Positions 19,138 through 47,440 are shown, counted from the first letter of the stretch. The stretch: DNA of 64,000 nucleotides from Vulcanimicrobiota bacterium (GCA_963714015.1 OY970223.1:2016001-2080000), one strand, 5' to 3'. Numbers and translations: made by a program. Notes: generated by a model not told the origin, from the sequence alone.

Positions 19138-19166
19138 TTGACCCGAATGAGGCGGGGTGATATACT
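19138..19166 (+). promoter_or_regulatory. Sigma70-type promoter of rpoB
   Basis: TTGACC-N17-TATACT with an extended TG. Confidence 0.8.
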
Positions 19167-19312
19167 ACTTGCCTATGCCCCGCGCCCGATAAAGGCATTA
19201 TATAGAAGAAGGACGAGTTATCCACAAGATGTGGAGGTCTCGTTCTTTTTAGCGTGCGCGGAAACCGGGCGGCATAGATTGCGCAAACACCTGGGTGAGA
19301 GAGAAAGAAGTA

Positions 19313-22300
19313 ATGGCGAAAACGACGGCTCCTAAGTCCCCGGCTAAGAGCACCGCGGGCACCAAGAGCAAGTCGAAACGCGCGGCCGGCCAAACGGCAG
19401 GAAACGGCGCCGCGTTTCAGCCGAGCACCTTCCCGATGCCGACAGGCGCGTTCACAATCGAGCAGCCGCCGGATCCGGGCCCAAAGCGCGAGCGCTACAC
19501 GTTCGCGAAGATTCCGCACGTTCTGGAAGTGCCTAATCTGATCGAACTCCAGAAGGCCAGCTTCGAGTGGTTCAAGACCGAAGGCTTGGCCGAGGCGTTT
19601 GCTTCCATTTCGCCCATCAAGGACTTCACGGGCAATTTGGTCCTGGAGTTCGGCGACCACAGCCTGGGCGAACCGAAATATTCCGTTGAAGAATGCCGCG
19701 AGCGCGACATGACGTACAGCGCGCCGCTGCGCGTTCGCGTGCGCTTGATTACGGCCGAATCCGGCGAAATCAAAGGCATTCCCGACCAAGAGATCTTCAT
19801 GGGCGACTTCCCGCTTCAAACAAGGAACGGAACGTTCATGATTAACGGTGCCGAGCGCGTCATCGTCAGTCAGCTCGTGCGCTCGCCCGGCGTGTACTAC
19901 AACCAGGACGTCGACACGAACAACCGTCCCGTTTACAACGCGACGATCATCCCAAATCGCGGCGCATGGATTGAATTCGAAACCGACAACGGCACGAAGA
20001 ACGACGAGACCGAAGGTACGATCGGCGTTCGCATCGACAAGAATCGCAAGATCTACGTTTCGACGTTCATCCGCGCGCTCTCGCGTCCCGACATGGGTTA
20101 CAGCTGGGAGACCGACGAGGCGATTCTTGCGCTGTTCGGCGAGTCTCCGCTCGTGCGCAACTCGATCGAGAAAGATCGCGATATCAAGACGCGTGAAGAC
20201 GCGCTCAAGGAAATCTACAAGAAGCTTCGTCCGGGCGAACCCGAAAACGCCGAGAACGCCGAGAAGCTGCTCGAGTCGCTGTTCTTCGACGACAAACGCT
20301 ACGATTTGGCGGGCGTCGGCCGGTACAAGCTGAACGCGAAGTTCCAATACCGCATCGAGAATCCCGACGTGGAAGCACGCGGCGAGCAGCCGACCGTGCT
20401 CATCGACGAGTACGGCGATGCGGGCCTGAAGATGCCTCCAATCGAGAAGCGCTGCTTGACGCGCGAAGACATGATCGCGGTGATACGCCGTCTGATCAAA
20501 GTCGCCACAGGCGTGATTCCCAAGGACGACATCGACCATCTGGGCAACCGCCGGATCCGTTCGGTCGGCGAGCTGCTGCAGAACCAGTTCCGCGTGGGTT
20601 TGCTACGTCTGGAGCGCGTCGTGCGCGAGCGCATGACGGTTCAGGACATCGAGACCGTTACGCCGCAGGCACTGATCAACATCCGTCCGGTAGTGGCGGC
20701 GATTAAGGAATTCTTCGGCTCCTCGCAGCTCTCGCAGTTCATGGATCAAACCAACTCGCTCGCCGAACTGACGCACAAGCGGCGTCTCTCTGCGCTCGGG
20801 CCGGGCGGTCTCTCGCGCGAACGCGCAGGCTTCGAAGTGCGCGACGTTCACCACTCGCACTATGGCCGCATCTGTCCGATCGAGACGCCGGAAGGTCCGA
20901 ACATCGGGCTCATCGGTTCGCTCGCGACCTATGCGCGCGTAAACAAGTTCGGCTTCATCGAAACGCCTTACCGGGTCGTGCGCGACGGTCACGTCACGGA
21001 CGAGATCGTGTATCTGACCGCGGATCGCGAAGACGAGTACATCATCGCGCAGGCAAACACGCCGGTCAACGAAAAGGGCCGGATAACGTCCGACTCGGTC
21101 GTCTGCCGCTATGCCGAAGAGTACATCGAAGAGCCGGCATCGCGCGTACAGCTGATGGACGTCTCTCCCAAGCAGATCGTATCGGTCGCGACGGCGCTGA
21201 TTCCGTTCCTCGAGCACGACGATGCAAACCGCGCGCTCATGGGCGCGAACATGCAGCGTCAGGCCGTGCCGCTTCTGCGTCCGCAGGCGCCGATCGTCGG
21301 CACCGGCATGGAGTACCGCTCGGCGAAGGACTCGGGCAGCCTCATCGTCACGGACGTTCCTGGCGAGGTGGTCGACGTCGATTCCAAGACGATCACGCTC
21401 AAACTCGGTGACGGCAGCGAGAAGAAGTTCGATCTGCTCAAATTCACGCGGAGCAACGCCGGCACGTGCATCAACCAGCGTCCCATCGTGAATCTGGGCG
21501 AGCGCGTTGTCGCGGGACAAATCCTGGCCGACGGCCCTTCGTCCGATGAAGGCGAGCTGGCGCTGGGTCAAAACGTCCTTGTGGCATTCATGCCGTGGGA
21601 AGGCTACAACTACGAAGACGCCATCCTGATCAGCGAACGTATGGTCAAGGAAGACCGCTTCACTTCGATTCACATCGAAGAGTACGAGTGCGAAGCGCGC
21701 GACACGAAATTGGGTCCCGAGGAGATCACGCGCGACATTCCCAACGTGGGCGAGGATTCGCTCAAGGATCTCGACGAGCGCGGCATCATTCGCATCGGCG
21801 CGGAAGTGCGCCCGGAAGACATCCTGGTCGGCAAAGTCACGCCCAAGGGCGAGACCGAGCTGACCGCGGAAGAGCGTTTGCTGCGCGCAATCTTCGGCGA
21901 GAAATCGCGCGAAGTTCGCGACACGTCGCTCAAAGTTCCGCACGGCGAAAAAGGCAAGATCATCGACGTGAAGGTCTTCTCGCGCGAAAACGGCGACGAG
22001 TCTGTCTCCGGGCGTGAACCACCTCGTGCGCGTCTACGTCGCGCAGAAGCGTAAGATTCTTCAAGGCGACAAGATGGCCGGACGCCACGGCAACAAGGGC
22101 GTCATCGCCAAGGTCCTTCCCGAAGAGGATATGCCGTATATGGAAGACGGCATGCCGGTGGACATCGTGCTGAATCCGCTGGGCGTTCCCTCGCGCATGA
22201 ATCTGGGCCAGATCATGGAGACGCACTTGGGCTGGGCTGCAAAGATGCTCGGCATGCACATTGCAACGCCGGTATTCGACGGCGCGCATTCCGAGGACAT

Positions 22301-23237
22301 CGCTGAATGGCTGCAAGACGCGGGCTTGCCGGCTGACGGTAAGACCTGGCTGCGCGACGGCCGCAACGGCGACCGCTTCTCGCGTCCGATCACGGTGGGC
22401 ATGATCTACATGCTCAAGCTGGCGCACTTGGTCGACGACAAGATTCACGCGCGTTCGACGGGCCCATACTCGATGATCACGCAGCAGCCGCTGGGCGGCA
22501 AGGCGCAGTTCGGCGGTCAGCGTTTCGGCGAAATGGAAGTTTGGGCGCTCGAGGCTTACGGCGCGGCGTACACGCTTCAAGAGCTGCTGACGGTCAAGTC
22601 CGACGACGTCGTCGGACGCGTCAAGACGTACGAGGCGATCGTCAAGGGCGAGAACGTGATGGAGCCGGGCGTTCCCGAGTCGTTCAAGGTCCTGATCAAA
22701 GAGCTGCAATCGCTCGCGCTCGACGTCAAAGTCCTGACCGAGAACCGCGAAGAGATCGAGATCAAGATCCAAGACGACGACATGGGCGAACGTGCTCAGG
22801 AGATCGGTTTGCTCATGGGCGACGAAGACCCGCGCATGACGCAGACGGCCGCGGCACAACGCGAAGCCGAAGCGCAGCGCGCGACGGTCGGCGTGGTCGA
22901 AGCCGAAATCGGCGAAGCCCAACCCGTTGACGAGGAAGAAGAGGAAGAGGAAGAGATCGACGACTCCAAACCGATCGTCACCGGTCCGGTAGGCGGCGCC
23001 ATGGCGTCGGCCGAGGCCGACATGCAGGTTCCGGGCGCCGGAATTCGAGCCACGATTGGCGAGATCGACGAACTCGAGCTCGAGGAAGAAGAGCCCGCGG
23101 AGGAAGAGGAAGAGGAAGAGCAAGGCTACCAACTCGAGGAAGAAGACGAAGACGTCGCCGAAGAAGAATCGCCTTTCGGTGAAGAAGAGGAAGAGTCCGA
23201 TTCGTACCGTGAGAACACGGAAGAAGAGAGCTTCTAA
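19313..23237 (+). CDS. rpoB: RNA polymerase beta subunit; apparent +1 insertion at about 22001; long acidic C-terminal tail
   Basis: [36 protein letters not shown]; two ORFs join as ENGDE(L)SPGVNHLV if one T is removed. Confidence 0.97.
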
Positions 23238-47146: not shown

Positions 47147-47239
47147 ATCGCTCCTCCCGGTACGAAAACGCCCTGCCGAAAGTACGCGCAAGCAGGCGCT
47201 CGAGCCTGGCAAGCGAGAGGAGGGCTGCACCCGCTGCAG

Positions 47240-47268
47240 TTGCACTGCACGGGCCAAGCCGGTATACT
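47240..47268 (+). promoter_or_regulatory. Sigma70-type promoter of rpoC
   Basis: TTGCAC-N17-TATACT. Confidence 0.75.
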
Positions 47269-47440
47269 AGTGGACTGTGCCCGGGCCCGGCGGACGCGCC
47301 GCGGCACCAGCTTAAGGCAGCGGTGGGACGGCTTACGAGACAACGTGAGAACCGCGATCCCTGCGCAAGCCGCGGCCGGTATGGGCATCCAGCCTTCGAC
47401 GGGTTCAGGCTCCTTCGCAGGCACGGGATGACAGAAACAC

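Follow-up and report, generated by a model that had tools for sequence, protein, structure and literature searches.

A shared promoter-proximal core and a predicted leaderless mini-ORF upstream of the separated rpoB and rpoC genes of a Vulcanimicrobiota bacterium

Promoters and shared core of the rpoB and rpoC leaders

The window analysed here, 64,000 nucleotides (nt) in length (G000:C1:2016001-2080000), is part of the genome of a soil bacterium of the Vulcanimicrobiota, a single contig of 3.56 Mb with 61% G+C. All positions are counted from the first letter of the window. The rpoB gene (19313–23237), which encodes RNA polymerase's beta subunit, begins with ATG, and the rpoC gene (47441–51272), which encodes the beta' subunit, begins with TTG; both are on the plus strand. 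To our knowledge, rpoB and rpoC are co-transcribed in almost all bacteria. In the window they are separated by a 24-kb segment, rpoB is preceded by a MarC-family gene (Pfam) and not by rplJL, and the leaders of the two genes start almost identically downstream of separate predicted promoters. These starts, and the elements that follow them in each leader, were compared across related genomes. The leader sets were made distinct by their first 36 bases; the sequences are related throughout, so that the counts do not represent independent events. Four genomes flagged as unpublished (G021, G023, G046 and G069) supply 1 of 87 rpoB and 4 of 92 rpoC sequences and were left out of alignment A4 and covariance model R1.

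The predicted rpoB promoter (19138–19166, plus strand) consists of the −35 hexamer TTGACC, a 17-nt spacer and a TG-extended −10 box, TATACT, with 10 of 12 consensus matches. In a consensus scan, sites of this quality (10/12 with TG before the −10 box) are expected 0.2 times in shuffled sequences, and the TG at −3/−2 is present in 67 of 75 distinct rpoB leaders. The rpoC promoter (47240–47268, plus strand), with TTGCAC, a 17-nt spacer and TATACT, was read from the sequence. It has 8 of 12 consensus matches, which places it below the threshold of the scan, and was not called by it; a TTG-type −35 box and a TAnnnT −10 box occupy the same place in relatives. From the −10 box onward the two leaders read TATACTACTTGCCTATGCCCCGCGCCCG (rpoB, from 19161) and TATACTAGTGGACTGTGCCCGGGCCCG (rpoC, from 47263). 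The core of this similarity, CT[A/G]TGCCC, begins exactly 6 nt after the −10 hexamer on both promoters, as CTATGCCC at 19173–19180 upstream of rpoB and as CTGTGCCC at 47275–47282 upstream of rpoC, on the plus strand in both cases.

The composite pattern TATACTNNTNGNCTRTGCC has two exact matches in the 3.56 Mb of the genome, namely the rpoB and rpoC copies in the window, and two matches with one mismatch, one of which is the rpmH(-rnpA) promoter. Among 70 genomic sites of the form TTGNNN-N16-18-TATANT, CTRTGCC follows only at rpoB and rpoC, and among 86 genomic copies of CTRTGCCC, the promoter geometry is found only at the rpoB, rpoC and rpmH copies. Thus the 5' similarity of the rpoB and rpoC leaders is real and gene-specific. 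The core is absent from the other strong promoters of the genome, including the rRNA promoters. The sixth position after the −10 box is a pyrimidine in all 75 distinct rpoB leaders and in 97 of 103 rpoC leaders. The next two core bases are C and T, rarely another pyrimidine, and the base after those is only A or G. The spacer has no G-rich discriminator.

The rpmH-rnpA promoter, which lies outside the window (G000:C1:713172-713260, L086), carries the same −10 box and core (TATACTAGGTGGCTGTGCCC), with a GC hairpin and then a T6 run directly downstream. Three further genomes, G003, G007 and G009, share this arrangement; the core stands on rpmH in four genera.

At the same spacing, the core is present upstream of rpoB at 75 of 80 named Eremiobacterota loci and at 28 of 30 relatives' loci, the two misses being a truncated contig and a locus with CG in place of CT. 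Outside the class it was found in one of 20 rpoB upstream regions (17 further families of the phylum were sampled, and the single case is family f4), so that the core is essentially class-specific in what was sampled. Upstream of rpoC it occurs only in the family of the window, Baltobacteraceae (f1), in 94 of 124 unique upstream regions. The 30 misses comprise 11 genomes in which rpoC adjoins rpoB, 16 one-base variants (for example, CTGTGCT, CTGCGCC and TCGTGCC) and 3 truncated sequences. This distribution follows the gene order in 41 related genomes. In the two sister families f2 and f3 rpoB and rpoC are adjacent and a single motif stands on rpoB only (9 of 9 examined rpoB leaders in f3), whereas in f1 the two gene starts are separated by 7.7 kb to 341 kb or the genes are on different contigs, and the motif is on both. 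The distribution fits an ancestral rpoB leader start that was copied onto rpoC when the operon split, which supports the proposal in the initial annotation of this DNA that an element was duplicated onto rpoC after the split. When a 20-nt pattern was searched in the 41 genomes, nearly all matches lay upstream of rpoB or rpoC, and rpmH was matched in G000, G003, G007 and G009; the seven other matches examined have no −35 box. Apart from the core, rpoB and rpoC leaders resemble each other no more within a genome than between genomes (16 genomes, permutation p 0.25), and concerted evolution of the two leaders within a genome was not seen beyond the core.

Both polymerase genes are broken in frame in this assembly. 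The Pfam Rpb2 domains 1, 2, 3, 45, 6 and 7 of rpoB and the Rpb1 domains 1–5 of rpoC are each spread over two open reading frames (ORFs). The rpoB frame is broken near 22002–22012, where a tblastn alignment with a relative's intact 1308-residue protein changes frame, and the rpoC frame is broken between 49665 and 49780. In relatives both genes are single ORFs of about 1260–1340 residues, those of rpoC about 1260–1300. The frameshifts in both genes, together with a genome completeness of 89.6% despite the single contig, favour assembly indel errors over real gene splits. Single-base indel errors of this kind could also touch the leaders of the window, for example in CCC versus CCCC after the GTG. 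The segment between the two genes carries two paralogues of the virginiamycin B lyase (beta-propeller) family just inside its ends, at 23527–24651 on the plus strand and at 45172–46392 on the minus strand.

Predicted mini-ORF, stop-codon hairpin and terminator of the rpoB leader

The ATG within the rpoB core opens a predicted leaderless mini-ORF at 19175–19192 (plus strand), ATG CCC CGC GCC CGA TAA, which would encode MPRAR. An ORF of 4–6 codons in this frame is present in 71 of 87 distinct rpoB leaders, compared with 4 and 1 in frames +1 and +2, and its stop codons are used about equally (TAA 25, TGA 26, TAG 20). Such an in-frame stop, confined to one frame and supplied by three different stop codons, suggests that the frame is read. 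The peptides follow the pattern M-P-x-G/A-x, for example, MPRGA, MPRAR and MPLGR. Codon 2 is CCC in 78 leaders, CCG in 3, CCA in 3 and CCT in 1, and codon 4 is GGC in 48, GCC in 14, GGT in 5 and GGA in 3. In leader L149 a TGG replaces the stop and the ORF is one codon longer, ending at TAA. The spacing of TAnnnT, 8 nt and RTG would leave no room for a Shine-Dalgarno site at 75 of 80 rpoB loci and in 94 of 124 rpoC regions.

The predicted mini-ORF start codon differs between the two genes. It is ATG in 80 and GTG in 7 rpoB leaders, and GTG in 61, ATG in 30 and GTC in 1 of the rpoC leaders. The A-U to G-C difference between the two leaders of the window, which had been interpreted as a compensatory change in a helix, is better read as this alternation of ATG and GTG. 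A 4–6 codon ORF is kept in 37 of 92 rpoC leaders, compared with 7 and 4 in the other frames. One type of rpoC leader, termed here type (ii), has CTATGCC and often a terminator, and its ORFs encode the same MPxGx peptides as those of the rpoB leaders. The copy upstream of rpoC in the window has decayed. It begins with GTG, runs for 12 codons to a TAA (47277–47315, plus strand) and extends at its end into the first bases of the structured element described below. The signs that a frame is being read, namely an in-frame stop and synonymous variation of the proline codon, are present in the rpoB leaders and absent from this 12-codon copy.

A small hairpin surrounds the rpoB mini-ORF stop codon (19175–19198, plus strand). 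In the window it is formed by AUGCC and GGCAU and is weak (−3.6 kcal/mol, z 0.1); in relatives codon 4 pairs with the triplet that follows the stop. The stop codon is enclosed by a pair in the minimum free energy (MFE) fold of 67 of 71 short-ORF leaders. The two arms covary, GCC at codon 4 being accompanied by GGC after the stop in 14 of 14 cases and GGC by GCC in 40 of 48. Thus the alternation of Ala and Gly at codon 4 is tied to the helix, and frame and hairpin are both conserved.

Further downstream lies an intrinsic-terminator-like hairpin (19206–19250, plus strand) with an A-tract and a U5 tail, a candidate leader attenuator. Its folding energy is −23.4 kcal/mol (z −5.78), and 0 of 200 shuffled sequences are as stable. 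A hairpin followed by a T-run is found in 77 of 87 distinct rpoB leaders, with the T-run at a median of +73, and the gap between the mini-ORF stop and the terminator stem is 17–20 nt in 52 of 68 leaders. All nine f3 leaders examined have the terminator; there its 5' arm begins at +10, and the 5' ORF runs through the terminator in four of the nine. The rpoC leader of the window has no such terminator, and 27 of 92 rpoC leaders have one. The structures were assessed from per-sequence folds, because the MAFFT alignment of 64 full rpoB leaders (A3) was too gappy for RNAalifold to yield a consensus.

Between the terminator and rpoB, the start codon of the gene overlaps a stop codon, as TAATG or TGATG, in 57 of 79 leaders, including that of the window (19309–19315). 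In five of nine relatives with short leaders it is the 5'-terminal ORF whose stop falls on the start codon of rpoB, which suggests termination-reinitiation coupling in those lineages. After the terminator U-run (19251–19262; columns 101–115 of alignment A3) most relatives have G-[G/C]-[T/C]-GTGCCC, a second core-like GUGCCC, and the window has GCGTGCGCGG at the same place. No consistent ORF or pairing partner was found for this GUGCCC. A second upstream ORF running from it to the TAATG at the rpoB start was considered and rejected, as the start of that frame is inconsistent.

Structured RNA element and distal repeats of the rpoC leader

The rpoC leader of the window contains a different element, a 73-nt extended hairpin at 47306–47379 (plus strand), with the conserved arms GCxACGGUGGGA ... 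UCCCUGCGUxAGC and an apical CUUACGUGACxACGUGAG. Covariance model R1 matches it with 72.7 bits and an E value of 2.5e-13, the sole match in the genome, and in the window it folds to the consensus shape. The element was tested on a MAFFT alignment of 58 sequences, which was not fitted to the structure, over 24 base pairs. The paired positions can pair in 82.2% of cells, compared with 76.5% in shuffles (0 of 500 as high) and 35–47% when the pairing partners are slid. The covariation score is 0.189, compared with 0.109 in shuffles (0 of 500 as high) and 0.064–0.079 slid, and 17 of the 24 pairs have changed on both sides. The single-sequence fold of the element is unexceptional (z −1.57), so that its support is comparative; the single-sequence fold of the whole rpoC leader is likewise not unusual (z −0.82).

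In a class-wide sample of 151 genomes the element is present in 86 of 115 genomes of f1, in none of 3 of f2 and in none of 32 of f3; one of the 86 matches comes from a genome flagged as unpublished (G224). Each matching genome has one copy, except for two with a second, weaker match, and the element ends about 20–70 nt before the rpoC start in all 16 genomes in which coordinates were compared. It is specific to rpoC and new in the lineage of the window, where it probably carries beta'-specific control. No Rfam family matched the leaders, either at the gathering score for the window or at E values up to 10 for the three leaders searched; the comparison with Rfam that the initial annotation had proposed thus leaves the novelty of the leaders standing. 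The only Rfam match in the window at the gathering score is a tRNA gene (3402–3476, minus strand). A literature search, one part of which was loosely matched and returned no Eremiobacterota paper, found no description of the mini-ORF module or of the rpoC element. We regard the rpoC element as a clean candidate for a new family of cis-regulatory RNAs.

The rpoC start codon is TTG, sometimes GTG, in most leaders with the structured element; genomes that keep rpoC behind rpoB have ATG, as do many leaders of the mini-ORF type. In L289 (G012:C32:19200-20400), a stretch with masked bases, a second leader of the ATG/mini-ORF type lies about 1 kb upstream of the real rpoC. Behind it stands a copy of roughly the first 24 codons of rpoC, joined to a different frame; this is a tandem duplication of part of the 5' end of rpoC.

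The 3' parts of the two leaders are less constant than their 5' core. The sequence strings on which the initial annotation was built are all present in the window, namely GGCATAG (19271–19277) and AAACAC (19285–19290) before rpoB, GGCACGG (47420–47426) and AAACAC (47435–47440) before rpoC, and a nearer GGCAT at 19194 and GGCAC at 47303. The leader motif that it had described as shared by both genes holds for the 5' core, which is conserved and gene-specific; its 3' portion, GGCAYRG...AAACAC (19271–19290 and 47420–47440, plus strand), is not conserved, as both strings are missing even in genomes of the same genus (rpoB leaders L011 and L012; rpoC leaders L041 and L043). The distal rpoC string lies in a repeat-like stretch that resembles a dispersed repeat, CCTTCGAC...CAGGATGAC, in the intergenic DNA of relatives. 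Pieces of this repeat, (G)TCCTTCGAC-N-CTCAGGATGAC, occur inside several leaders (47384–47433 in the window, and L045, L201 and L012), and a fuller copy lies elsewhere in the same genome (G000) at position 2310979 on the minus strand.

Interpretation and comparison with known systems

On balance we lean towards reading the shared sequence as a start-site module with a 5'-terminal leaderless mini-ORF, and not as a long-range folded leader. Each gene would be served by its own sigma-70-type promoter. After the variable, 5-nt part of the spacer come the pyrimidines Y-C-T and then a base that is either A or G, and this should force transcription to initiate on the purine 9 nt downstream of the −10 box. 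The initiating purine would be the first base of the ATG (rpoB) or GTG (rpoC) that precedes CCC, and the transcript would begin at, or at most 2 nt from, a start codon with no room for a Shine-Dalgarno site. On rpoB, a five-codon mini-ORF, M-P-x-G/A-x-stop, with its 3' half and stop held in the small hairpin, would be followed after 17–20 nt by a strong intrinsic terminator ahead of a weakly Shine-Dalgarno-like rpoB start. A ribosome bound at the 5' end might then set how many transcripts survive or read through. Within the class, the module would be an ancestral part of the rpoB(C) operon leader and would have been copied to rpoC when that gene moved away in Baltobacteraceae; in the lineage of the window the rpoC copy would have kept the start-site core, lost the short ORF and gained the structured RNA downstream. 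Such a module could help to match the output of beta and beta'.

Several observations weigh against this reading. The core outlives the ORF in three settings: in rpoC leaders of type (i), that of the window, which have CTGTGCC, an ORF of any length, the structured element and usually a TTG rpoC start; in f3, where the core is retained and the 5' ORFs run to 7–36 codons; and in the rpmH leaders, which have the core without a conserved short ORF. The rpoC core of some relatives reads CTGCGCC, which lacks a start codon. The mini-ORF peptides contain no repeated residue and no enriched amino acid. The available part of a study of Deinococcus places the −10 box 6–7 bp before leaderless ORFs (PMC12340547), and the 8-nt gap between the −10 box and RTG is 1–2 nt above that. 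A genome-wide count of TAnnnT offsets before long ORFs shows no clear peak as a signature of leaderless genes, with at most a slight excess at 7 nt (284, compared with 218–246 in the same codon phase) and none at 8 nt. Three RNA-labelled metatranscriptome contig sets (4–5% of sampled words; 85% likeness) consist only of relatives' coding contigs, which cover coding sequence from 19257 on and leave the leader uncovered. Finally, no antiterminator was found on masking of the ORF in silico in 68 leaders, in which the terminator remained formed (mean probability of its bottom pairs 0.78 free, and 0.87–0.90 with bases 1–12, the whole ORF or the sequence to stop+13 masked), which gives mini-ORF translation no evident way to alter expression.

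Because the core persists after decay of the ORF, a role in initiation at the DNA level stays in play, either as a rival or as a second function. The core, Y-C-T-R-T-G-C-C-C, may be an initiation element that sets the promoter kinetics of a few housekeeping genes, with the mini-ORF incidental or secondary; in one variant, starting 9 nt from the −10 box would make the open complex unstable and able to sense the ATP or GTP with which the transcript begins. We treat this as a tentative alternative of some weight. It agrees with a distance from the −10 box that is fixed in well over 150 leaders, with the conserved pyrimidine run before the purine, whose variants stay pyrimidine (CC, TC), with the spacer lacking a G-rich discriminator, and with a core that is kept without a short ORF or start codon in type (i) rpoC leaders, f3 and rpmH. 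However, it does not explain why 71 of 87 leaders have a stop in one particular frame, with each of the three stop codons in use, why the Pro and Gly codons vary in a synonymous-looking manner, or why the peptide pattern recurs on ATG-type rpoC leaders, and the other strong promoters of the genome do without the core. The DNA-level element and the mini-ORF are mutually compatible and do not exclude one another. A role of the core in RNA stability appears improbable. In that case a terminal hairpin of AUGCC with GGCAU (rpoB) or GUGCC with GGCAC (rpoC) would hide the end from 5'-end-dependent RNases and prolong the life of the two essential 4-kb mRNAs, as the nearer GGCAY partner in both leaders of the window, the UAUGCC/GGCAUA-type hairpin of the closest rpoB relatives and the hairpin around the stop codon in 67 of 71 short-ORF leaders would allow. 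Yet the covarying arm in most lineages is codon 4 and not the terminal bases, the start-codon bases are paired in the MFE fold of only 31 of 71 leaders, the rpoB hairpin of the window is no stabler than its shuffles (z 0.1), and a helix alone cannot account for eight nearly invariant bases.

The model that follows from the initial annotation supposes that a structured leader was duplicated. Its 5' motif would form a closing helix with the GGCAYRG close to the start codon, the nearer GGCAY would serve as alternative partner, and the leader would act as a switch sensing RNA polymerase. The window does contain the seven-base complements (19173–19179 with 19271–19277, and 47275–47281 with 47420–47426), about 10 of 17 leaders of the family have complements of 5–8 bp located 45–59 nt ahead of the rpoB start, and helices of at least 6 bp are enriched in rpoB leaders (50 of 79, compared with 26 in shuffles). 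A reversed-motif control, however, gives 39 of 79 at the same length. Helices of at least 7 bp that join the nine 5'-most bases to the final 72 nt are not enriched in rpoB (6 of 79, 6.9 expected from shuffles), and those of rpoC are enriched neither at this length (15 of 91, 18.5 expected) nor at 6 bp or more (55, compared with 50). The partners are absent in genomes of the same genus, and that of rpoC lies in a repeat-like insertion absent from most relatives. With a distal partner that is neither conserved nor enriched over shuffles, the proposed architecture of closing helix and alternative fold does not hold; we consider the model highly unlikely.

The start-site and mini-ORF reading can be carried further, although the extension is speculative and we would not expect it to hold in full. 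The five-codon leaderless ORF could be a sensor of translational capacity in series with the terminator, and the rpoC hairpin an operator bound by beta' or by core polymerase, which together would form a previously undescribed two-layer balancing scheme after the operon split. With such a sensor, synthesis of beta, and after the duplication of beta', would track how many ribosomes are available for initiation. Translation of the mini-ORF, if it occurs, would mean that a leaderless pentapeptide ORF controls the core transcription enzyme and ties the supply of polymerase to that of ribosomes, a long-standing question in growth control. Baltobacteraceae offer a natural experiment in what evolution placed before an orphaned rpoC: first, it appears, a copy of the ancestral start site and mini-ORF, and then a new structured RNA, which is found in one large sub-lineage. 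Vulcanimicrobium alpinum, which belongs to the same class, has been brought into culture according to the available parts of two reports (PMC9758169, PMC10582173).

The rpoB leader invites comparison with several groups of known regulators. In the classical leader-peptide attenuators, such as trpL, hisL and the pyrBI leader, a short ORF is followed by a terminator in the 5' leader, an arrangement also found upstream of rpoB. Unlike in those systems, the mini-ORF has no run of regulatory codons, no antiterminator was found in the leaders, and the ORF ends 17–20 nt before the terminator stem. Leader ORFs on the scale of a pentapeptide are known from cat-86 (MVKTD), cmlA and the erm leaders, and they illustrate that a ribosome near the 5' end can undergo a regulatory event once its nascent chain has reached about five residues. 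In those cases the ORF has a Shine-Dalgarno site, the response is to drugs that target the ribosome and the genes controlled are resistance genes, whereas nothing links the mini-ORF to a drug. The promoter geometry recalls E. coli rrnB P1, where transcription starts 9 nt from the −10 box and the unstable open complex senses the initiating nucleoside triphosphate. In both, the spacer is rich in pyrimidines and lacks a G-rich discriminator, and the start is a purine two positions beyond the usual one; the start site of the rpoB and rpoC leaders is a predicted one, and the core is not found on the rRNA promoters of this genome.

In E. coli, beta and beta' are under autogenous control by translational feedback. 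The available part of one article describes an attenuator between rplL and rpoB whose terminator readthrough responds to rifampicin (PMC6181997, citing Newman et al. 1982). As far as that part goes, the two systems have in common an intrinsic terminator just upstream of rpoB that limits, or in the window would limit, the transcripts reaching the polymerase genes. In contrast to E. coli, rpoB in the window has a promoter of its own and, as neighbour, a MarC-family gene in place of ribosomal protein genes upstream; its terminator is preceded by a predicted mini-ORF, and rpoC is a separate unit with a different downstream element.

Structured RNAs upstream of polymerase or ribosomal genes are represented in Rfam by the Lacto-rpoB RNA motif and the ribosomal-protein leader RNAs. 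These are the nearest kind of element to the rpoC hairpin, being conserved and presumably cis-regulatory. The rpoC element differs from them in having no Rfam match, in its restriction to one Eremiobacterota family and in its position upstream of rpoC and not rpoB. Mycobacterial leaderless short ORFs were reportedly the subject of Shell et al. 2015. In the available part of a further study, leaderless short ORFs with a 5' AUG or GUG act as attenuators in mycobacteria, among them poly-Cys ORFs (Canestrari et al., 10.1101/834739). Compared with what that part describes, the predicted rpoB mini-ORF has five codons and no run of a sensed residue, would act on RNA polymerase and belongs to a different phylum. 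It would share with the mycobacterial ORFs, as described there, a leaderless 5' AUG or GUG and a very short ORF as the first element of a longer transcript.

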